Source: a virus (Duplodnaviria > Heunggongvirae > Uroviricota > Caudoviricetes). From it: 26,750 nt of DNA. Of this stretch, positions 1-25,193 are shown one piece after another; positions within the stretch are counted from its first letter, which is position 1; each line of letters starts with the position of its first letter. The stretch lies in the IMG/VR virus record IMGVR_UViG_2531839662_000023; one strand, given 5' to 3'. The translations under genes were made by a program, and so were the position numbers. The notes under the pieces were generated by a model. That model did no database searches. It saw only the letters and a list, made by a program, of their open reading frames with translations, and had not been told where the DNA came from.

Positions 1-1164
1 TTACGCCTTCTTTATATCCTCCATAATTTCAGAGTGGGACATATTTGGGACATTATCACCAAAAATGTCGTCTATTTTCCTCGCATGCTCTGTCAAATGA
101 TTAGGCGCAAGGTGAGCATACCTACGAACCATTTCTATGGACTCCCATCCGCCCATTTCCTGAAGCACTGATAATGGGACGCCTGACTGAATCAGCCAGC
201 TTGCCCAGGTGTGTCTGAGGTCATGGAAACGGAAATCTTCAATTCCTGCACGACGACAAGCTGATAGCCATGATGTCTTGCTGTCGATGCGCATCTTCCT
301 GACCGCAGGCGTTGATGTTCCATCTGCTCGCTTAGCCGCCTTGGTATGTACAAACACCCATTTGTGATGCTTGCCTATTTGATCACGCAACACTTTACAG
401 GCGGTATCGTTCAGCGCCACACCAATGGCGCGGTTTGATTTGCTCTCTTCTGGATTCACCCAGGCAACTCGTCGCTGCATGTCGATTTGTTGCCATTCCA
501 GATTTATGATGTTCGACTTTCTCAGACCAGTTGCCAGCGCAAACTTGACGACAGATTTCAGTGGTTCGGGGCACTCATCAATAAGGCGTTTTGCTTCCTC
601 CTTTTCCAGCCATCTGACTCGCTTGTTTCTGACCGCTGGTATCTTGATGACAGGCGCTTTTTCCAGCCACTTCCAGTCGCGTTCTGCAGCACGGAGAATG
701 GCCTTTATCATGGCAAGATGCTTTGCCTTTGTCTGAGTTGATACTGGCTTTGGTTCATAAACAGGCAGTTCTTTACCTTTCCTGATGGCGGCCTGAACTT
801 TCTGTTTCCATATTTCTTTCGTCTTTCTGTTATGCATTCTGCTTACAGCAGAGTAAATCTTTGCCTCCGAGATATCTTTAAGCCTTATACCCTCAAAATG
901 TTCAAGCCAGAACTCAATCCGGCTTTTATCTGAATCGAGAGATTTTTTATCAGCTTTTTCCTCAAGCCATCTTAGGCAGGCCTCTTCAAAAGTGACATCA
1001 GGTAAATCCCCTAGCTTTTCTACTCGCCAGAGTTCTGCTTTTCGCTTGTCGTGCAACTCCTGAGCTTGCCGCTTGTCCTTTGTGCCAAGAGATTCCTTAA
1101 TTCGTTTCCCGCCCGGGAGCGAATACGAGGCATACCATATTTCATTTCTGCGGAAGAGTGACAT
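1..1164 (-). CDS. intD: Phage integrase, tyrosine recombinase (DLP12 IntD-like)
   Basis: Complete 387-aa ORF with the C-terminal catalytic motif [10 protein letters not shown]...RYAHL typical of tyrosine recombinases. Sequence recalled as DLP12 integrase. The stop codon is at position 1-3, so the att site lies outside the window. Confidence 0.9.
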
Positions 1165-1804: not shown

Positions 1805-1980
1805 ACCGCCTCCCGTTTATTATTTATCTTCTCAGCCAGCCGCTGTGCTTTCAGTGGATTTCTGATAACAGAAAGGCCGGGAAATACCCAGCCTCGCTTT
1901 GTAACGGAGTAGACGAAAGTGATCGCGCCTACCCGGATTGAACCGCCCCGGGTTTCCTGGAGAGTGTTTTATCTGTGAAC

Positions 1981-2871
1981 TCAGGCTGCCAGATCATTGT
2001 TTCCGATGGAAGCATAATAAGCTTTTTCTGCTTCTGCCGGAGGAGTATGGCCCAGCCTTCCCAGCAATCGTCGATTGTTATACCAGTCCACCCACGTTAG
2101 TGTGGCCAGTTCCACTTCTGCACGGTTTTTCCAGCTCTTACGGTGTATTACCTCCGCTTTGTAAAGACCATTGATGCTCTCAGCCATCGCGTTGTCATAC
2201 GAGTCGCCTGTACTCCCTGTTGATGCCAGTAATCCGGCTTCTTTTAGTCGCTCCGTATAGGCCAGTGACACATACTGAGAGCCTTTATCGCTGTGATGGA
2301 TGGTGCCAGACGGACGACGGGCCCACAACGCCTGCTCCAGCGCATCCAGCACGAATGTCGTTTCCATAGACGATGAGACCCGCCACCCCACGATGTATCC
2401 GGCAAACACATCAATGATGAACGCCACATAGACGAAGCCCCGCCATGTGCTGACGTAAGTAAAATCAGCCACCCACAGCTGGTCAGGTCGTTCTGCCACG
2501 AACTGACGGTTTACGCGGTCGCCTGCGGCAACGGCTTTCCGGCTGATGGTCGTACGGACCTTTTTACCCCGGAGAACACCGGCAAGTCCCATAACCGCCA
2601 TGAGGCGCGCCACTGTACATCTGGCCACCCTGATTCCTTCCCGTAACAACTGACGCCAGACTTTACGCACACCGTACACCTGATGATTTTCATCGTATAC
2701 GCGCTGTATCTCTCTCTTCAGCCAGTCATCGTGCTGCGCACGGGCACTGCGTTTATCCGGATGATGTCGCTGTTGCTGACAATGGTAATACGTTGACGGG
2801 GCAATATGCAGTTCGCTGCATACCGGTCCGACCCCGTACTGCTCACGCAGCTTATCCAGCAGTGGCATCAT
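1981..2871 (-). CDS. IS3-family transposase OrfB (DDE integrase core)
   Basis: 296 aa with an rve-type DDE region (WVADFTYV...HHSDKGSQY...[10 protein letters not shown]). Overlaps orfA by 4 nt, the usual arrangement for programmed frameshifting in this family. Confidence 0.85.
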
Positions 2872-3194
2872 TTTTTCCAGAGGCGGTCGAACTCCGCCTT
2901 CGCAAAATAAGCGGAAGCCTGGCGAAGGATATCGTTACTGCGGCGCAGTTCACGATTTTCACGTTCCAGCTCTTTCAGACGCTGACGTTCAGCGCTGGTG
3001 AGCCCACCATCACCGCCCCCGGTATCCCGCTCATGCTGGCGAACCCAGACACGCAGAGTCTCCGGCGTACAGCCAATCTTTGGGGCAATGGAACAAATTG
3101 CCGCCCACTGTGAGTCATATTCATCCTGACTTTCCAGAACCATACGAATCGCCCGCTGACGGACTTCGGGGGAAAAACGAGTATTTTTAGTCAT
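2868..3194 (-). CDS. IS3-family transposase OrfA (HTH)
   Basis: 108 aa beginning [22 protein letters not shown] with a leucine-zipper-like C-terminus ([27 protein letters not shown]). Recalled as IS629/IS1203-type OrfA. Confidence 0.85.
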
Positions 3195-3268
3195 CCTGTT
3201 TACCTCTTTCTCAGGGAGTTTAGTCTCCAGGATTTCCGGGGCGGTTCAGATATTATCGTGAGGATGCG

Positions 3269-3949
3269 TCATCGCCATTGCTCCCCAAATACAAAACCAA
3301 TTTCAGCCAGTGCCTCGTCCATTTTTTCGATGAACTCCGGCACCATCTCGTCAAAACTCGCCATGTACTTTTCATTCCGCTCAATCACGACATAATGCAG
3401 GCCTTCACGCTTCATGCGCGGGTCATAGTTGGCAAAGTACCAGGCATCTTTTCGCGTCACCCACATGCTGTACTGCACCTGGGCCATGTAAGCCGATTTT
3501 ATTGCCTCGAAACCACCGAGCCGGAATTTCATGAAATCCCGGGAGGTAAACGGGCATTTCAGTTCAAGGCCGTTGCCGTCACTGCATAAACCATCGGGAG
3601 AGCAGGCGGTGCGCATACTTTCGTCGCGATAGATGATCGGGGATTCAGTAATATTCACGCCGGAAGTGAATTCAAACAGGGTTCTGGCGTCGTTCTCGTA
3701 CTGTTTTCCCCAGGCCAGCGCCTTAGCATTAACTTCCGGAGCCACACCGGTGCAAACCTCAGCCAGCAGGGTGTGGAAGTAGGACATTTTCATGTCAGGC
3801 CACTTCTTTCCTGAGCGGGGCTTTGCTATCACGTTGTGAACTTCTGAAGCGGTGATGACGCCGAGCCGTAATTTGTGCCATGCATCATCCCCCTGTTCGA
3901 CAGCTCTCACGTCGATCCCGGTACGCTGCAGGATAATGTCCGGTATCAT
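3269..3949 (-). CDS. exo: Lambda-type 5'-3' exonuclease (Red alpha)
   Basis: 226 aa, near-identical by recall to lambda Exo ([40 protein letters not shown]...GEQWR). Appears intact. Confidence 0.9.
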
Positions 3950-4326
3950 GCTGCCACCTTCTGCTCAGTGGCTTTCTGTTTCAGGAATCCAAGAGCTTTC
4001 ACTGCTTCGGCCTGTGTCAGTTCTGACGATGCGCGAATGTCGCGGCGAAATATCTGGGAACAGAGCGGCAATAAGTCGTCATCCCATGTTTTATCCAGGG
4101 CGATCAGCAGAGTGTTAATCTCCTGCATGGTTTCATCGTTAATGGCTTTTTTGCTGGCCCCGTGGCGTTGCAAATGATCGATGCATAGCGATTCAAACAG
4201 GTGCTGGGGCAGGCCTTTTTCCATGTCGTCTGCCAGTTCTGCCTCTTTCTCTTCACGGGCGATCTGCTGGTAGTAACGCGCCCAGCTCTGAGCCTCAAGA
4301 CGATCCTGAATGTAATAAGCGTTCAT
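3946..4326 (-). pseudogene. In-frame fusion of gam N-terminus to bet C-terminus
   Basis: Residues 1-60 match lambda GamS ([17 protein letters not shown]...[10 protein letters not shown]). Residues 61-126 match the lambda Bet C-terminus ([57 protein letters not shown]). Overlaps the exo start by 4 nt, as bet does in lambda. Confidence 0.7.
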
Positions 4327-8348: not shown

Positions 8349-9046
8349 AAAACATCGCCGCACAGATGGTTAACTTTGACCGTGAGCAGATGCGCCGGAT
8401 CGCCAACAATATGCCGGAACAGTACGACGAAAAGCCGCAGGTACAGCAGGTAGCGCAGATCATCAACGGTGTGTTCAGCCAGTTACTGGCAACTTTCCCG
8501 GCGAGCCTGGCTAACCGTGACCAGAATGAACTGAACGAAATCCGCCGCCAGTGGGTTCTGGCTTTCCGGGAAAACGGGATCACCACAATGGAACAGGTTA
8601 ACGCTGGAATGCGCGTAGCCCGTCGGCAGAATCGACCATTCCTGCCATCACCCGGGCAGTTTGTCGCCTGGTGCCGGGAAGAAGCATCTGTTAACGCCGG
8701 GCTGCCAAACGTCAGCGAGCTGGTTGATATGGTTTACGAGTATTGCCGGAAGCGTGGCCTGTATCCGGATGCAGAGTCTTATCCGTGGAAATCGAACGCG
8801 CATTACTGGTTGGTTACCAACTTGTACCAGAACATGCGGGCCAATGCGCTGGCTGACGCGGAATTACGGCGCAAGGCTGCCGATGAACTGACCTGTATGA
8901 CAGCGCGAATTAACCGTGGTGAGACGATACCTGAACCAGTAAAACAACTTCCTGTTATGGGCGGTAGACCTCTAAATCGTGCACAGGCTCTGGCGAAGAT
9001 CGCAGAAATTAAAGCTAAGTTCGGACTGAAAGGAGCAAGTGTATGA
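8345..9046 (+). CDS. Replication protein P (DnaB helicase loader)
   Basis: 233 aa, near-identical by recall to lambda P (MKNIAAQMVNFDREQMRRIANNMPEQYDEKPQVQQVAQ...AKFGLKGASV). Confidence 0.9.
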   Translation: MKNIAAQMVNFDREQMRRIANNMPEQYDEKPQVQQVAQIINGVFSQLLATFPASLANRDQNELNEIRRQWVLAFRENGITTMEQVNAGMRVARRQNRPFLPSPGQFVAWCREEASVNAGLPNVSELVDMVYEYCRKRGLYPDAESYPWKSNAHYWLVTNLYQNMRANALADAELRRKAADELTCMTARINRGETIPEPVKQLPVMGGRPLNRAQALAKIAEIKAKFGLKGASV

Positions 9047-9345
9047 CGGGCAAAGAGGCAATTATTCATTACCTGGGGACGCATAAGAGCTTCTGTGCAC
9101 AGGACGTTGCCGCGGTAACAGGCGCAACCGTAACCAGCATAAATCAGGCTGCGGCTAAAATGGCGCGGGCAGGAATCCTGGTCGTTGATGGTAAGGTCTG
9201 GCGAACGGTGTATTACCGGTTCGCTACCAGAGAAGAATGGGAAGGAAAGGTGAGCACGAATCTGATTTTTAAGGAGTGTCGCCAGAGTGCCGCGATGAAA
9301 CGGGTATTGAGGGTATATAAAAGAACATCAATGGGAACACAATGA
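9043..9345 (+). CDS. ren: Ren protein (Rex exclusion resistance)
   Basis: 100 aa beginning MTGKEAIIHYLGTH...VTSINQAAAKMARAGILVVDGKVWRTVYYRFATREE, matching lambda Ren by recall. Overlaps the P stop. Intact here. Confidence 0.85.
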   Translation: MTGKEAIIHYLGTHKSFCAQDVAAVTGATVTSINQAAAKMARAGILVVDGKVWRTVYYRFATREEWEGKVSTNLIFKECRQSAAMKRVLRVYKRTSMGTQ

Positions 9346-9412
9346 TGAAACAGGTGAGTTGAGTTCAAACTGTAGTACAATTCTCTCCAGTTTGAACAGG
9401 AAAGAATATGCT

Positions 9413-9745
9413 ATGAACCCTTATATTTATCTTGGTGGTGCAATACTTGCAGAGGTCATTGGTACAACCTTAATGAAGTTTTCAGAAGGTTTTACACGGT
9501 TATGGCCATCTGTTGGTACAATTATTTGTTATTGTGCATCATTCTGGTTATTAGCTCAGACGCTGGCTTATATTCCTACAGGGATTGCTTATGCTATCTG
9601 GTCAGGAGTCGGTATTGTCCTGATTAGCTTACTGTCATGGGGATTTTTCGGCCAACGGCTGGACCTGCCAGCCATTATAGGCATGATGTTGATTTGTGCC
9701 GGTGTGTTGATTATTAATTTATTGTCACGAAGCACACCACATTAA
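9413..9745 (+). CDS. emrE: Small multidrug resistance efflux transporter EmrE
   Basis: 110 aa from the internal ATG at 9413 (MNPYIYLGGAILAEVIGTTLMKFSEGF...), with four TM segments and the conserved Glu in TM1. The track ORF carries an 18-aa upstream extension. Confidence 0.9.
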   Translation: MNPYIYLGGAILAEVIGTTLMKFSEGFTRLWPSVGTIICYCASFWLLAQTLAYIPTGIAYAIWSGVGIVLISLLSWGFFGQRLDLPAIIGMMLICAGVLIINLLSRSTPH

Positions 9746-9775
9746 AATAATTTGTTTCTAAACGACTAAAATATG

Positions 9776-9818
9776 GAGGCTCTTATATTTATATGAGCCT
9801 CGTTTTATGCTTTTTGTT
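9776..9818 (+). terminator. Rho-independent terminator after emrE
   Basis: Stem GAGGCTC(9776-9782)/GAGCCTC(9795-9801) followed by GTTTTATGCTTTTTGTT. Confidence 0.55.
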
Positions 9819-9999
9819 AATGTCTTTATTTTTTATGTATTCTTTTGTGCTTTCAAGATTATGGCGTAAGAAAATTGCAATACGATTATTGTTGTATATT
9901 CAAGATAATGTGACCTTAATTGTCTTTTTAAATAAAAAATAAACAAAAATTATATCCCACCACTAAGGTTTATAAAAGCATACGTTAGCAGGTGTCACC

Positions 10000-10569
10000 A
10001 TGAAAAAAGCCATAGCATATATGCGATTTTCATCACCAGGTCAGATGTCTGGCGACTCATTAAACCGACAGAGAAGACTTATTGCTGAATGGTTAAAGGT
10101 AAATAGTGATTATTATCTTGATACCATAACATATGAAGATTTAGGATTAAGTGCATTCAAAGGAAAGCATGCACAATCAGGAGCTTTTTCGGAATTTTTA
10201 GATGCTATAGAGCATGGTTATATATTGCCAGGAACTACATTGTTAGTTGAAAGTCTGGACAGACTTTCAAGAGAAAAAGTCGGTGAAGCGATTGAACGTC
10301 TGAAATTGATTTTGAATCACGGTATTGATGTTATAACTCTTTGCGACAATACAGTCTATAATATTGGCTCTTTGAATGAGCCATATTCATTAATAAAAGC
10401 CATACTTATAGCACAAAGGGCAAATGAAGAAAGCGAGATAAAGTCAAGTCGGGTTAAATTATCATGGAAGAAAAAACGGCAGGATGCACTGGAATCAGGT
10501 ACGATTATGACGGCGTCTTGTCCGAGATGGCTCTCCTTAGATGACAAAAGAACGGCTTTTGTTCCAGAC
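10000..10569 (+). pseudogene. ybcK: Large serine recombinase, N-terminal part, interrupted by IS2
   Basis: Resolvase-type catalytic domain (IAYMRFSSPGQ...LLVESLDRLSRE). Homology stops at the IS2 end (10570). Reading continues in frame after the IS at 11901. Confidence 0.7.
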
Positions 10570-10580
10570 TGGATTTGCCC

Positions 10581-11486
10581 CTATATTTCCAGACATCTGT
10601 TATCACTTAACCCATTACAGGCCCGCTGCCGCAGATATTCCCGTGGCGAGCGATAACCCAGCGCACTATGCGGATGCCATTCGTTATAATGCTCGAACGC
10701 CTCTGCAAGGTTCTTTGCTGCCGTTAACCCGTCTGGTTTGGGCATGATACTGATGTAGTCACGCTTTATCGTTTTCACGAAGCTCTCTGCTATTCCGTTA
10801 CTCTCCGGACTCCGCACCGCCGTGTTCTTCGGTTCAAGTCCCAACATCCGGGCGAACTGGCGTGTTTCATTAGCCCGGTAGCATGAACCATTATCCGTCA
10901 GCCACTCCACTGGAGACGACGGAAGATCGTTGCCGAAGCGGCGTTCCACCGCTCCCAGCATGACGTCCTGTACTGTTTCACTGTTGAAGCCGCCGGTAGT
11001 CACCGCCCAGTGCAGTGCCTCACGATCACAGCAGTCCAGCGCGAACGTGACACGCAGTCTCTCTCCGTTATCACAGCAGAACTCGAACCCGTCAGAGCAC
11101 CATCGCTGATTGCTTTCTTTCACGGCCACTCTGCCTGTATGTGCCCGTTTCGATGGCGGTACAGCAGGTTTTCGCTCAAGCAACAGCGCATTCTGGCGCA
11201 TGATCCGGTAAACACGTTTGGCATTGATCGCAGGCATACCATCAAGTTCTGCCTGTCTGCGAAGCAGCGCCCATACCCGACGATAACCATACGTGGGCAG
11301 CTCTCCGATAACATGGTGTATACGGAGAAGCACATCCGTATCATCAGTGTGACGACTGCGGCGGCCATCCATCCAGTCATCGGTTCGTCTGAGAATGACG
11401 TGCAACTGCGCACGCGACACCCGGAGACAACGGCTGACTAAGCTTACTCCCCATCCCCGGGCAATAAGGGCGCGTGCGCTATCCAC
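10581..11486 (-). CDS. insD: IS2 transposase InsD (OrfB)
   Basis: 301 aa ([30 protein letters not shown]...), recalled as IS2 InsD. Confidence 0.9.
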
Positions 11487-11809
11487 TTTTTTGCCCGTCC
11501 ATATTCAACGGCTTCTTTGAGGAGTTCATTTTCCATCGTTTTCTTGCCGAGCAGGCGCTGGAGTTCTTTAATCTGCTTCATGGCGGCAGCAAGTTCAGAG
11601 GCAGGAACAACCTGTTCTCCGGCGGCGACAGCAGTAAGACTTCCTTCCTGGTATTGCTTACGCCAGAGAAATAACTGGCTGGCTGCTACACCATGTTGCC
11701 GGGCAACGAGGGAGACCGTCATCCCCGGTTCAAAGCTCTGCTGAACAATTGCGATCTTTTCCTGTGTGGTACGCCGTCTGCGTTTCTCCGGCCCTAAGAC
11801 ATCAATCAT
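11444..11809 (-). CDS. insC: IS2 transposase InsC (OrfA)
   Basis: 121 aa from the internal ATG ([40 protein letters not shown]...), recalled as IS2 InsC. The track ORF has a 15-aa extension. Confidence 0.9.
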
Positions 11810-11900
11810 CTGTTCTCCAATGACTAGTCTAAAAACTAGTATTAAGACTATCACTTATTTAAGTGATACTGGTTGTCTGGAGATTCAGGGGGCCAGTCTA

Positions 11901-12862
11901 CAGACCCCGACAGGGTGAAAACTATTGAGCTAATTTTTAAACTCAGGATGGAAAGGCGCTCATTGAATGCAATAGCCAAGTATTTAAATGATCATGCTGT
12001 AAAGAATTTCTCAGGAAAAGAAAGTGCATGGGGACCTTCTGTAATTGAAAAATTATTAGCGAATAAAGCTCTGATAGGTATTTGCGTACCTTCATATCGT
12101 GCAAGAGGGAAAGGGATAAGTGAAATCGCTGGCTATTATCCCAGAGTCATATCAGATGATTTGTTTTACGCTGTACAGGAAATTCGGTTGGCACCTTTTG
12201 GTATTAGCAATAGTAGCAAGAATCCTATGCTAATAAATCTACTTCGAACAGTTATGAAGTGTGAGGCTTGTGGTAATACCATGATTGTTCATGCGGTATC
12301 TGGAAGTTTGCATGGCTATTATGTTTGTCCGATGAGAAGATTACATCGATGTGACAGGCCATCAATAAAAAGAGATTTGGTTGATTATAATATCATTAAT
12401 GAATTGCTTTTTAATTGTAGCAAAATTCAACCAGTTGAAAACAAGAAAGATGCTAATGAAACTTTAGAGTTAAAAATTATTGAGCTTCAGATGAAAATTA
12501 ATAATTTAATCGTTGCATTGTCTGTCGCGCCTGAAGTTACCGCTATAGCAGAGAAAATAAGACTATTAGATAAGGAATTACGAAGGGCTTCGGTATCATT
12601 GAAAACTTTGAAGAGTAAAGGTGTAAATTCATTCAGTGATTTTTATGCTATTGACTTAACCAGTAAAAATGGACGAGAGTTATGCCGTACACTTGCCTAT
12701 AAAACATTCGAAAAAATCATAATTAATACGGATAATAAAACCTGTGATATCTATTTTATGAATGGCATTGTTTTTAAACACTATCCTTTAATGAAAGTAA
12801 TATCCGCCCAGCAGGCGATAAGTGCTCTCAAATATATGGTTGATGGTGAGATTTATTTCTAA
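11901..12862 (+). pseudogene. ybcK: Large serine recombinase, C-terminal part
   Basis: Recombinase and zinc-ribbon region (CEACGNTMIVHAVSG...YYVCPMRR) plus coiled coil. Removing the IS and one CAGAC copy restores ...[17 protein letters not shown]... in frame. Confidence 0.7.
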
Positions 12863-13326
12863 ATAATGATCTCGGATTTTAAGTTATGCTATGGTGATAA
12901 AGTGCAAGACAGAATTAATTATCTTTGACGAAACTTAATGGGTAATTACTTTGTTTGCTCCCACAAGCGAGTTTTGTACGGCTGTATTGGGGTAGTAAAT
13001 GAGCTATACAATCTTAATCATTTGTTAGGTGAGAACTCTTGGTCGCAGATTCAAATACTGAAAATACGTGACAAATTATTATGAGCAAAATGGTGTATGT
13101 CACGTATTTTGAATGGTAGGTTAAAAAATAACACCGACTTTCGTAGGTGTTACTAATAATAAAGCAGAGTTTTTAGATAGTATCAATGTGCTTTGTGTAT
13201 ATTGTGGCAAATAATTGGGTTGGGGGTACAATTGTGATTGCTTTTGCATGAACATTGCGCCTTTATGCATAATGAGATAAAGGAATATCAAATAAAATAA
13301 CGATAGGTCATAACAAAGAGGTTTTT

Positions 13327-13878
13327 ATGAAAACACTTATCGTTTCAACTGTATTGGCATTCATAACATTTTCTGCGCAGGCTGCAGCATTTCAGGTCAC
13401 TAGTAATGAAATAAAAACAGGAGAGCAACTTACAACGTCTCATGTCTTTTCTGGATTTGGGTGTGAAGGTGGTAATACATCGCCCTCATTAACCTGGTCT
13501 GGTGTTCCTGAAGGTACCAAAAGCTTTGCCGTAACTGTATATGATCCAGATGCACCTACAGGCAGTGGTTGGTGGCATTGGACTGTTGTTAATATTCCAG
13601 CAACAGTAACATATTTGCCCGTTGATGCAGGGAGACGTGATGGAACAAAACTGCCGACTGGTGCTGTTCAAGGCCGAAATGATTTTGGCTATGCTGGGTT
13701 TGGTGGCGCATGTCCTCCTAAAGGAGATAAACCACATCATTACCAGTTTAAAGTATGGGCTCTAAAAACTGAAAAGATTCCTGTAGATTCTAACTCCAGC
13801 GGAGCGTTAGTTGGTTATATGCTTAATGCTAATAAAATCGCAACCGCTGAGATAACACCAGTTTATGAGATAAAGTAG
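13327..13878 (+). CDS. ybcL: Periplasmic PEBP/RKIP-family protein YbcL
   Basis: 183 aa with signal peptide MKTLIVSTVLAFITFSAQA and PEBP motifs (YDPDAPTGSGWWHW...PPKGDKPHHYQFKVWAL). Confidence 0.85.
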   Translation: MKTLIVSTVLAFITFSAQAAAFQVTSNEIKTGEQLTTSHVFSGFGCEGGNTSPSLTWSGVPEGTKSFAVTVYDPDAPTGSGWWHWTVVNIPATVTYLPVDAGRRDGTKLPTGAVQGRNDFGYAGFGGACPPKGDKPHHYQFKVWALKTEKIPVDSNSSGALVGYMLNANKIATAEITPVYEIK

Positions 13879-13887
13879 GGTGAGAGT

Positions 13888-14685
13888 ATGCTGGCAAGAG
13901 GTAAGACTAACTTAAAGATCGAAGAAATACGGATGCATAAACATCATGAGATTCATAGGGTTAAGCCTCTTATGCCAGCTTTGTGTCGTATCCGTCAGGG
14001 AAAGAAAGTTATCAATTGGGAGACGCATACTTTAACTGTTGATAATAATCAAATAATATTATTTCCTTGTGGTTATGAATTTTATATTGAGAATTATCCT
14101 GAAGCAGGGCTTTATCTTGCAGAAATGCTTTACTTACCCATTGATTTAATTGAGAGTTTCCAAAAACTTTATACGGTAACTGATCAAATACGTAACAAAA
14201 CAAGTTTCTTTTTACCTCAGAATCCTGAGTTAATATATTGTTGGGAGCAACTAAAAACATCTGTTTCCCGAGGCTTCTCAACTAAAATTCAGGAGCACTT
14301 AGCAATGGGCGTTCTACTTTCGTTAGGAGTGAATCATGTTAATCATTTACTTTTATCATATAGTAAACAATCATTGATAAGTCGTTGTTATAACCTGCTG
14401 CTATCCGAACCCGGCACAAAATGGACAGCAAACAAGGTTGCTCGATATCTCTACATTTCTGTTTCTACATTACATCGCCGTCTAGCAAGCGAGGGGGTAA
14501 GTTTCCAAAGTATACTGGACGATGTGAGGTTAAATAATGCGTTGTCTGCTATACAAACGACGGTAAAACCTATAAGCGAGATTGCCAGAGAAAATGGTTA
14601 TAAGTGTCCTTCTCGTTTTACTGAAAGATTTCATAATCGTTTTAATATAACACCAAGAGAGATAAGAAAAGCTTCCAGAGAGTAA
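13888..14685 (+). CDS. ybcM: AraC-family transcriptional regulator
   Basis: 265 aa with a C-terminal AraC-type HTH ([21 protein letters not shown]...[26 protein letters not shown]). Confidence 0.8.
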
Positions 14686-14801
14686 AAGTGTTTTAAGAAG
14701 GAGCAATTCTATCGATTTTGATTTTGGGAAATCAACACGGCATAATTATGTCACCGGAGCCTGAACAACTCCGGTGACTTCTGCGCTAAACGGGGACGTT
14801 T

Positions 14802-14903
14802 ATGCGCACATACAATCCAAACTCTCTTCTCCCTTCACAGATGCAGAAATGCACCTGCAATTCTTTGCATCTAGCGTTTGACCTCTGCGGAGGGGAAGCG
14901 TGA
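14802..14903 (+). CDS. ylcH: Small protein (33 aa), YlcH-like
   Basis: Own translation: ATG at 14802 gives [33 protein letters not shown], with its stop overlapping the ybcN GTG start (GTGA). Name assigned by position and size. Confidence 0.4.
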
Positions 14904-15355
14904 ACCTCTCACAAGACGGCATCAAATTACATCGCGGCAACTTCACCGCTATCGGTCGGCAGATCCAGCCTTATCTGGAGGAGGGCAAATGCTTTCGCAT
15001 GGTGCTTAAACCGTGGCGTGAGAAACGCAGTCTTTCCCAGAATGCACTCAGCCACATGTGGTACAGCGAAATCAGTGAATACCTCATCAGCAGGGGTAAA
15101 ACGTTCGCCACTCCAGCTTGGGTAAAAGATGCTCTCAAACACACATATCTCGGTTATGAAACCAAAGACCTGGTTGATGTCGTAACCGGTGATATCACCA
15201 CTATCCAGTCGTTACGCCATACCTCCGATCTTGATACCGGAGAGATGTATGTCTTCCTGTGTAAGGTTGAAGCCTGGGCGATGAATATTGGTTGCCACCT
15301 GACTATTCCACAGAGCTGCGAGTTCCAGCTGCTGCGCGACAAGCAGGAGGCGTAA
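14900..15355 (+). CDS. ybcN: NinB-like protein (DLP12 YbcN)
   Basis: 151 aa, GTG start preceded by GGAGGGG. First gene of a tightly coupled nin-region operon. Confidence 0.8.
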
Positions 15356-15525
15356 TGGCTACACCGCTTATTCGTGTCATGAACGGACACATCTACAGAG
15401 TACCAAATCGTCGTAAGCGTAAACCTGAGCTGAAGCCATCCGAAATACCAACACTGCTCGGATATACCGCCAGCTTGGTTGATAAAAAATGGTTGCGACT
15501 GGCAGCAAGGAGGAGTCATGGCTGA
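15355..15525 (+). CDS. ninE: NinE-like protein
   Basis: 56 aa from [32 protein letters not shown]. Start overlaps the ybcN stop (TAATG). Confidence 0.75.
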   Translation: MATPLIRVMNGHIYRVPNRRKRKPELKPSEIPTLLGYTASLVDKKWLRLAARRSHG

Positions 15526-16962: not shown

Positions 16963-18060
16963 TTAGAACTGGTAAACCAGACCTACAGCAACGATGTCAT
17001 CAGTGCTTACACCGAGTGCTTTAGTGAAGTCATTTTTGTCAAGCAGGTTGATTTTGTAATCAACGAAAGTAGACATATTTTTGTTGAAGTAATAGGTTGC
17101 ACCTACATCAACATATTTGACTAAGTCCTGATCGCCCCATACTCCAAGATCCTTACCTTTAGATTGCAGGTAAGCAACGGACGGACGCAGACCGAAATCG
17201 AACTGATATTGTGCAACAGCTTCGAAGTTTTGGGCTTTATTAGCAACGAAGTGATCAGCAAATACAGTCATATTCTGGGTTTCAGAATAGGTAGTGGCCA
17301 GGTAAATGTTGTTAGCGTCATATTTCAGACCTGCGGCCCAAACTTCTGCATTTTTACCGGAAGCAAATACTTCAGGAAGAACTTTCCCTGCATTAACTTG
17401 AGTGTCGGTACGATCAGATTTCGCATAAGTTGCACCGATACCGAATCCTTCGTATTCATAGGTAGCAGAGAAACCGAAGCCATCACCGTTACCTTCAGTG
17501 TAGTTATCGAAATCGCTACGATCGTTTTTGCCTTGGTACTGAGCAGCAAAGTTCAGACCATCAACCAGACCAAAGAAGTCGTTGTTACGATAGGTTGCAA
17601 CACCAGTTGCACGTTGAGTCATGAACACGTCGGTTTGAGTCCAAGTGTCACCACCGAATTCTGGCAGGACGTCAGTCCACGCACCGATGTCGTATGCTAC
17701 ACCGTAGTTACGGCCGTAATCGATGGAGCCGTAGTCACCGAATTTCAGGCCAGCGAAGGCAAGACGGGTTTTATCTTTGGAGGAACCTTGAGATTCAGCG
17801 CGGTTGCCTTTGAATTCATATTCCCACTGACCGAAACCAGTCAGTTGATCGTTGATTTGGGTTTCACCTTTGAAGCCAAGATGGGCATAAGTAGTATCAC
17901 CATCATCTGCATCATTAGAGGAGAAGTAGTGCTTAGCATTAACTTTCCCGTACAGATCCAGCTTGTTACTGTCTTTATTATAAATTTCAGCTGCCTGAGC
18001 AGACATCGCCATCAGTACTGATGCAGCTACAGCAGAAATTGCCACTGTTAATTTTTTCAT
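16963..18060 (-). CDS. nmpC: General porin, OmpC/OmpF/PhoE family (NmpC-like), intact
   Basis: 365 aa from [30 protein letters not shown]..., with signal peptide and a C-terminal beta-strand ending in F (VGLVYQF). The track ORF adds 20 aa upstream. Confidence 0.85.
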
Positions 18061-18487
18061 CGTGAGCCCTTTTTTTGAACTATTATTAAAAAATGATGTC
18101 ACTGCGCGATAAATATTCATCTAATCAATGTGATTATTTCAAGATGTAAGTTTTGGTTTCTCGTTTGATTTGTGAAGTAGATCTCTATTTTTATCTGAAC
18201 TTTTTTCTATCGAATCCTATTCATGGCTCTTGGCTGAATAAAAATAAATCTATTAGCCAATTTATATTAACGGCTGTTATTTATAAGCGCTCTATAATTT
18301 GAAGGTTCAATTTAAACCGGCTAAAAATAACACTGGAAATTATTTTTTGGTTATTTGTTGAGATTTGCTTATGTATTTGTAGTGGTGTTTTCAATACTCG
18401 GTAGCATTCTCTCAAATATCATTTAGTGGTTTACGTACGTAAAAAATTGGTTATGCTGTTAAGAGTGGTTACTTCGTCACACAGCTT

Positions 18488-22068: not shown

Positions 22069-25093
<3,025 letters not shown>

Positions 25094-25193
25094 ATTTTAG
25101 CCCCATCATCTGTGTTTTTTTTCATTAATTTCACCATGTTATAGTTTTATTTGTGAATTAAATCAATTATGGCAATGAATTACAAGGGGTTAA

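Follow-up and report, generated by a model that had tools for sequence, protein, structure and literature searches.

Background

The insertion sequence IS2, a member of the IS3 family, carries two genes, orfA and orfB, with A6G slippery codons, has asymmetric left and right ends (IRL and IRR) and transposes by a two-step pathway with a figure-of-eight and a minicircle as its intermediates (PMC3299598). An annotated point of comparison for the element described here is IS2A (insC1/insD1) of E. coli K-12 MG1655. The DLP12 prophage is the corresponding reference for the surrounding DNA. In published work IntD is regarded as the DLP12 integrase. Excision of DLP12 is attributed to it and is rare, occurring in fewer than 1 in 100,000 cells (PMC3105296); it can be induced by overexpression of ybcC and intD (PMC12607911). 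One of the genes carried by this prophage, ybcK, belongs to a listed set of 16 K-12 genes for site-specific recombinases (PMC5426353), and its product has been described as an unknown protein resembling CisA of B. subtilis, with which it is paired by PSISearch2D (PMC6637259). In UniProt the K-12 protein is listed as uncharacterised (P77698). A literature search on ybcK returned gene lists and "uncharacterised" entries and found no demonstrated function, and comparison of YbcK with the sequences in the PDB gave no match at E ≤ 0.01.

The window analysed here (IMG/VR record IMGVR_UViG_2531839662_000023) is a stretch of phage-related DNA of 26,750 nucleotides in which ybcK is split by a copy of IS2. 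It is nearly certain, in our judgement, that this arrangement reflects a recent, strain-specific IS2 insertion that turned ybcK into a pseudogene within a DLP12-type prophage of strain UMNF18 or a near-identical isolate, with the IntD system unaffected. The locus is already annotated in RefSeq, where two "recombinase family protein" pseudogene fragments surround an IS2 family transposase.

The host prophage and its integrase

The window is collinear with the RefSeq record of E. coli UMNF18 (NZ_AGTD01000001.1), starting at intD (record position 543383). From the RefSeq annotation of the UMNF18 locus and the identity of ybcK, the island is a cryptic lambdoid prophage of the DLP12 type, integrated at tRNA-Arg (argU). 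It shares with DLP12 the argU site, the adjacent intD gene and a matching gene order through nohD-appY. At the left end, tRNA-Arg is followed by intD, a truncated xis-like fragment, exo, truncated bet and gam, kil, and cI-like and cro-like genes. The middle of the island contains O, P, ren, emrE, ylcJ, ybcK::IS2, ybcL, ybcM, ybcN, ninE, ybcO, rusA and quuD, after which come a porin gene, essD-rrrD-rzpD, bor, a truncated nohD fused to a fragment of J, and appY.

The prophage carries its own tyrosine integrase gene, intD (positions 1-1164, minus strand), which is intact and encodes a protein of 387 aa that matches the Pfam family Phage_integrase (E = 5.2e-47) and is annotated as intD in RefSeq. 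The tRNA-Arg gene lies 15 bp from intD in the RefSeq record, just beyond the window edge. A 47-bp exact direct repeat of the argU 3' end is found at bp 573072-573118 of NZ_AGTD01000001.1, outside the window and between ompT and envY, and is presumed to be attR. Because of the position of this repeat, the att-bounded island includes appY and ompT and reaches past the end of the window. Together, IntD and the 47-bp argU repeats form the classic arrangement of a tRNA-targeting tyrosine integrase.

Apart from IS2, the prophage shows several defects in the RefSeq annotation: truncation affects the xis fragment, bet, gam and nohD, and most of the morphogenesis genes have been lost by deletion. The bet and gam fragments abut at 3946-4326, indicating an internal deletion and thus older decay. 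At approximately 22134-25150, truncated nohD is joined to the fragment of tail gene J, and nearly all of the head and tail genes are deleted.

Anatomy of the IS2 element

The insertion is a complete IS2 of 1331 bp (10570-11900) whose transposase is encoded on the minus strand, annotated in RefSeq as "IS3-like element IS2 family transposase". On the window strand the element begins with TGGATTTGCCCC, its right end, and finishes with the reverse complement of TAGACTGGCCCCC, its left end. Gapped alignment of the two ends and an inverted-repeat scan delimit a right terminal inverted repeat (IRR) of 41 bp (10570-10610, minus strand, starting TGGATTTGCCCC), which adjoins the 5' part of ybcK, and a left terminal inverted repeat (IRL) of 42 bp (11859-11900, minus strand, starting TAGACTGGCCCCC), which adjoins the 3' part. 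The scan recovered these ends as an inverted repeat (I1) of 33 nt with 79% complementarity. G+C content steps at both boundaries, from approximately 0.36 in ybcK to 0.53 in IS2.

Both transposase genes are preserved. The insC-type orfA (11444-11809, minus strand) is intact in translation and encodes 121 aa with an HTH_Tnp_1 domain (Pfam, E = 2.4e-19), while the overlapping insD-type orfB (10581-11486, minus strand) encodes the DDE catalytic domain (Pfam rve, E = 1.1e-18, with rve_3 and HTH_21). An A6G slippery site (AAAAAAG) for -1 programmed frameshifting can be read on the minus strand at 11486-11492. The reconstructed OrfAB fusion (10581-11809, minus strand) is open throughout its 409 aa, and the RefSeq CDS is annotated with the programmed frameshift.

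With respect to IS2A of MG1655, the copy agrees in length, in IRL and IRR, in its overlapping orfA and orfB with the A6G site, in the DDE (rve) domain and in a 5-bp target duplication. Only four of the 1331 positions differ (99.7% identity, where IS2 membership calls for more than 95%), one of them in IRL at IS position 32. Many pig ETEC strains have copies, chromosomal or plasmid-borne, that are 100% identical over the full 1331 bp, and for this reason we regard the element as a circulating and presumably active IS2 variant. With its coding and end sequences intact and identical copies at many loci, the copy at 10570-11900 looks able to transpose.

Target duplication, empty site and restored frame

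IS2 is flanked by two copies of CAGAC, read directly from the sequence at 10565-10569 and 11901-11905. The repeat is perfect over 5 bp and the sixth base does not match. A 5-bp match at two fixed positions would be expected by chance with a probability of approximately 1/1024, but stronger proof of insertion is provided by the nearly identical prophage of the pig E. coli O141:H4 strain P13-6, in which the empty site, GTTCCAGACCCCGAC, contains a single CAGAC.

When positions 10570-11905 (IS2 and one CAGAC) are excised in silico, bases 10000-10569 are joined in frame to bases 11906-12862. The restored ORF is 1527 nt (508 codons) in length and contains no internal stop or frameshift. At the DNA level, these 1527 nt match the ybcK copy annotated as intact in P13-6 with 100.0% identity and the copy of K-12 MG1655, placed by annotation within "cryptic prophage DLP12", with 99.9% identity. 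The preliminary description of this DNA, made from its letters, had reported a 1331-bp IS2 bounded by perfect CAGAC repeats, whose removal returns a continuous recombinase frame. Its coordinates prove to be exact, the two repeat copies are identical and a 508-aa reading frame is recovered. Nothing contradicts this structural description of the insertion.

By analogy with the pathway known for IS2, a transposition-competent copy would have arrived by copy-out/paste-in, by way of a figure-of-eight followed by a minicircle. A staggered 5-bp cut at CAGAC, between ybcK codons 190 and 191, would account for the duplication, and the IntD/argU att system for integration and excision would have been left untouched by the event.

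Comparison with the UMNF18 record

Although collinear, the window and the RefSeq record of UMNF18 are not identical. The RefSeq record has an additional IS1203 in the porin (nmpC-like) gene (16963-18120, minus strand), at a site corresponding to 16999-17001, and this element is absent from the window. Between the two sequences there are also 13 SNPs, all of which fall inside IS copies: 11 in a second, IS3-family element and two in IS2 (11001 and 11295). These differences suggest that the two sequences stem from different assembly versions or from sibling isolates. Because the two sequences disagree on IS1203 and on the IS-internal SNPs, the IS content of this locus has to be read as dependent on the assembly or isolate.

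Such disagreement shows that the assembly of IS regions in this genome is not stable, and it could be proposed on that basis that IS2 was misplaced into ybcK through mis-assembly of a repeated element. Both IS2 junctions, however, are found in the window and again in the RefSeq record, and a perfect 5-bp duplication of CAGAC, which is present once at the empty site, is what real transposition leaves behind, in contrast to repeat collapse. We consider an assembly artefact to be so improbable as to be almost negligible.

The second IS in the window (1939-3248) is a 1310-bp IS3-family element (IS1203/IS629-like) that interrupts a DUF1317 gene. It is flanked by a 3-bp target duplication, GAT (1936-1938 and 3249-3251), and includes a frameshift pseudoknot of the ALIL type (Rfam RF01497) at 2797-2913 on the minus strand. 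This pseudoknot was the only match when Rfam was searched over the whole window, with none in the IS2/ybcK region. A promoter and terminator scan of 9700-13400 gave no more sites than shuffled sequence, and for that reason we make no claim regarding hybrid promoters or polarity.

Strain distribution and age of the insertion

Among 5,426 complete E. coli genomes, only the porcine ETEC strain UMNF18 (NZ_AGTD01000001.1) contains both IS2/ybcK junctions, each as a contiguous sequence. The P13-6 prophage, which occupies the same argU site, is 99.98-100% identical to the window over approximately 25.5 kb, with 3 SNPs in total, and the only other differences are three of IS presence or absence. P13-6 lacks the 1310-bp IS3-family element at 1939-3248 and lacks IS2 in ybcK; instead, it carries a 100% identical IS2 in ybcM (locus L006 of P13-6, 17075-18405), with a target duplication of CCGAA at the equivalent of window positions 14405-14409, where the window has no insertion. 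As the P13-6 copy is in ybcM and the window copy is in ybcK, the same IS2 variant has struck neighbouring cargo genes independently in sister prophages.

Collinear flanks, an exact duplication, an intact IS2, junctions found in a single genome and an empty site in a near-identical prophage together make this a recent and simple insertion, as had been proposed from the sequence of the window, and one with no rearrangement alongside it.

IS2 is also found at a second site in ybcK, in strains F344 (France) and LWY24 (a chicken isolate from China). In both, the element has the same orientation as in the window and the duplication is AGTAG (equivalent to 12212-12216). The IS2 copies of these two strains (loci L002 and L003, 3512-4842) are 95.5% identical to each other and their flanks are 93.3-99.0% identical; either one old insertion or two independent events at a target hot spot could have produced them. 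Since the ybcM insertion of P13-6 and the second-site insertions of F344 and LWY24 use other target positions, they are independent of the event in the window.

A second ybcK site occupied in two other genomes, by IS2 copies only 95.5% identical mutually, would be expected if loss of YbcK were adaptive and recurrent IS2 insertions in the gene were favoured. Against this, ybcK is present in 1,424 of the 5,426 complete genomes (about a quarter), the copy is close to full length in 1,398 of them, and IS2 is known in the gene in only three. Furthermore, the sister prophage of P13-6 carries the same IS2 in ybcM rather than in ybcK. This pattern fits random insertion into AT-rich, dispensable prophage cargo, and selected inactivation of ybcK is very unlikely.

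Structure of YbcK and consequences of its interruption

ybcK is now divided into a 5' fragment of codons 1-190 (10000-10569, plus strand), which RefSeq annotates as a pseudogene ("recombinase family protein, missing C-terminus"), and a 3' fragment of codons 191-508 plus the stop (11906-12862, plus strand), also annotated as a pseudogene ("missing N-terminus"). The 5' ORF as it stands extends 28 codons into IS2 and ends at a stop codon at 10654-10656. In the restored protein, Pfam identifies a Resolvase domain (PF00239, residues 4-161, E = 1.5e-18), a Recombinase domain (PF07508, residues 191-284, E = 2.3e-14) and a zinc ribbon (Zn_ribbon_recom, PF13408, residues 302-357, E = 8.1e-08). The catalytic Resolvase domain lies in the 5' fragment, while the Recombinase domain, the zinc ribbon and the C-terminal region lie in the 3' fragment. 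Given that Resolvase ends at residue 161, Recombinase starts at residue 191 and the insertion falls between codons 190 and 191, IS2 breaks the gene at a domain boundary. The insertion thus cuts off catalysis from the parts that bind DNA, the Recombinase and zinc-ribbon domains, and makes ybcK a pseudogene whose function has probably been lost.

The gene is otherwise very similar to ybcK of K-12 DLP12, with which it shares both the sequence identity given above and the neighbouring genes (ren, emrE and ylcJ upstream, ybcL and ybcM downstream); the window copy differs in being split by IS2 into two annotated pseudogene fragments. In its Resolvase, Recombinase and zinc-ribbon architecture, YbcK resembles the large serine recombinases, such as the phiC31, Bxb1 and A118 integrases and SpoIVCA/CisA. 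It retains YMRFSSPGQ at residues 7-15 (Y-x-R-x-S-S-x-x-Q) and DRLSR at residues 87-91 (D-R-L-x-R), which we take to be large-serine-recombinase motifs, the former containing the nucleophile serine. Phages of Streptococcus, Faecalibacterium and Anoxybacillus encode distant relatives of YbcK (22-30% identity) for which the annotation is integrase.

With this full domain set, the conserved motifs and integrase-annotated relatives, it might be supposed that YbcK is the recombinase that mobilises the island and that, once it is disrupted, the island is locked in place, as the preliminary description had proposed. That proposal does not hold. At the end nearest the tRNA the island encodes an intact tyrosine integrase, IntD, it has 47-bp tRNA-derived att repeats, and it is to IntD that the two DLP12 studies cited above (PMC3105296, PMC12607911) ascribe excision. 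Unlike the large serine recombinases that serve as phage integrases, ybcK is not terminal: it lies approximately 10 kb inside the prophage, between ren/emrE/ylcJ and ybcL, alongside a tyrosine integrase. Around ybcK, a scan of 8500-15500 for att-like repeats, direct or inverted, returned only the IS2 terminal repeats and short chance matches, so that the gene has neither the terminal position nor the cognate att sites of an integrase. YbcK also differs from the characterized large serine recombinases in that no activity has been reported for it. Finally, the prophage is defective in any case through its truncations and deletions.

The same conclusion is reached from the distribution of the ren-emrE-ylcJ-ybcK module, which is also present in lambdoid phages and prophages with other tyrosine integrases and attachment sites. 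In strain F344 the same block is part of a complete lambdoid prophage that occupies another locus and encodes a different tyrosine integrase. The block is found in 12 sequenced Escherichia lambdoid phages, among them phage 4A7, which has its own integrase and excisionase genes (int and xis) near an icd fragment. We consider it extremely unlikely that YbcK mobilises the island. From its sequence context, YbcK behaves as nin-region cargo and not as the mobilising enzyme, and its interruption by IS2 should be without effect on prophage mobility, which would depend on IntD acting on the argU att repeats. Since IS2 has interrupted a gene other than that for the prophage integrase, there is no basis here for a story of domestication by immobilisation.

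Where the gene is conserved, its position is constant: ybcK follows ren-emrE-ylcJ and is itself followed by variable cargo. The downstream genes are ybcL-ybcM in the window (12863-14900), an esterase gene in phage 4A7 and a gene for a P22AR C-terminal-domain protein in LWY24; in the loci that were compared (L003, 5605-5922; L008, 17690-18733) the downstream genes vary while ren-emrE-ylcJ-ybcK remains constant upstream. Because of this fixed place followed by changing cargo, one could envisage YbcK as an accessory serine recombinase of lambdoid phages that promotes exchange or capture of neighbouring cargo and that has been knocked out here by IS2, a reading to which we attach very little probability. 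As far as sequence alone can tell, YbcK may still contribute to rearrangement of prophage DNA in a minor way or under certain conditions.

Conclusions

The insertion at 10570-11900 is an ordinary event, and a new mechanism is neither required nor suggested by the evidence. In E. coli, prophage cargo genes are routinely turned into pseudogenes by IS2 insertions that leave 5-bp duplications, and the present case was already annotated. Its junctions have a modest value as a strain marker, ybcK::IS2 being unique to UMNF18 among the 5,426 complete genomes. In addition, the pair formed by this prophage and that of P13-6, which differ by the presence or absence of three insertion sequences and by only 3 SNPs, is a clear-cut case of IS activity in the very recent past.
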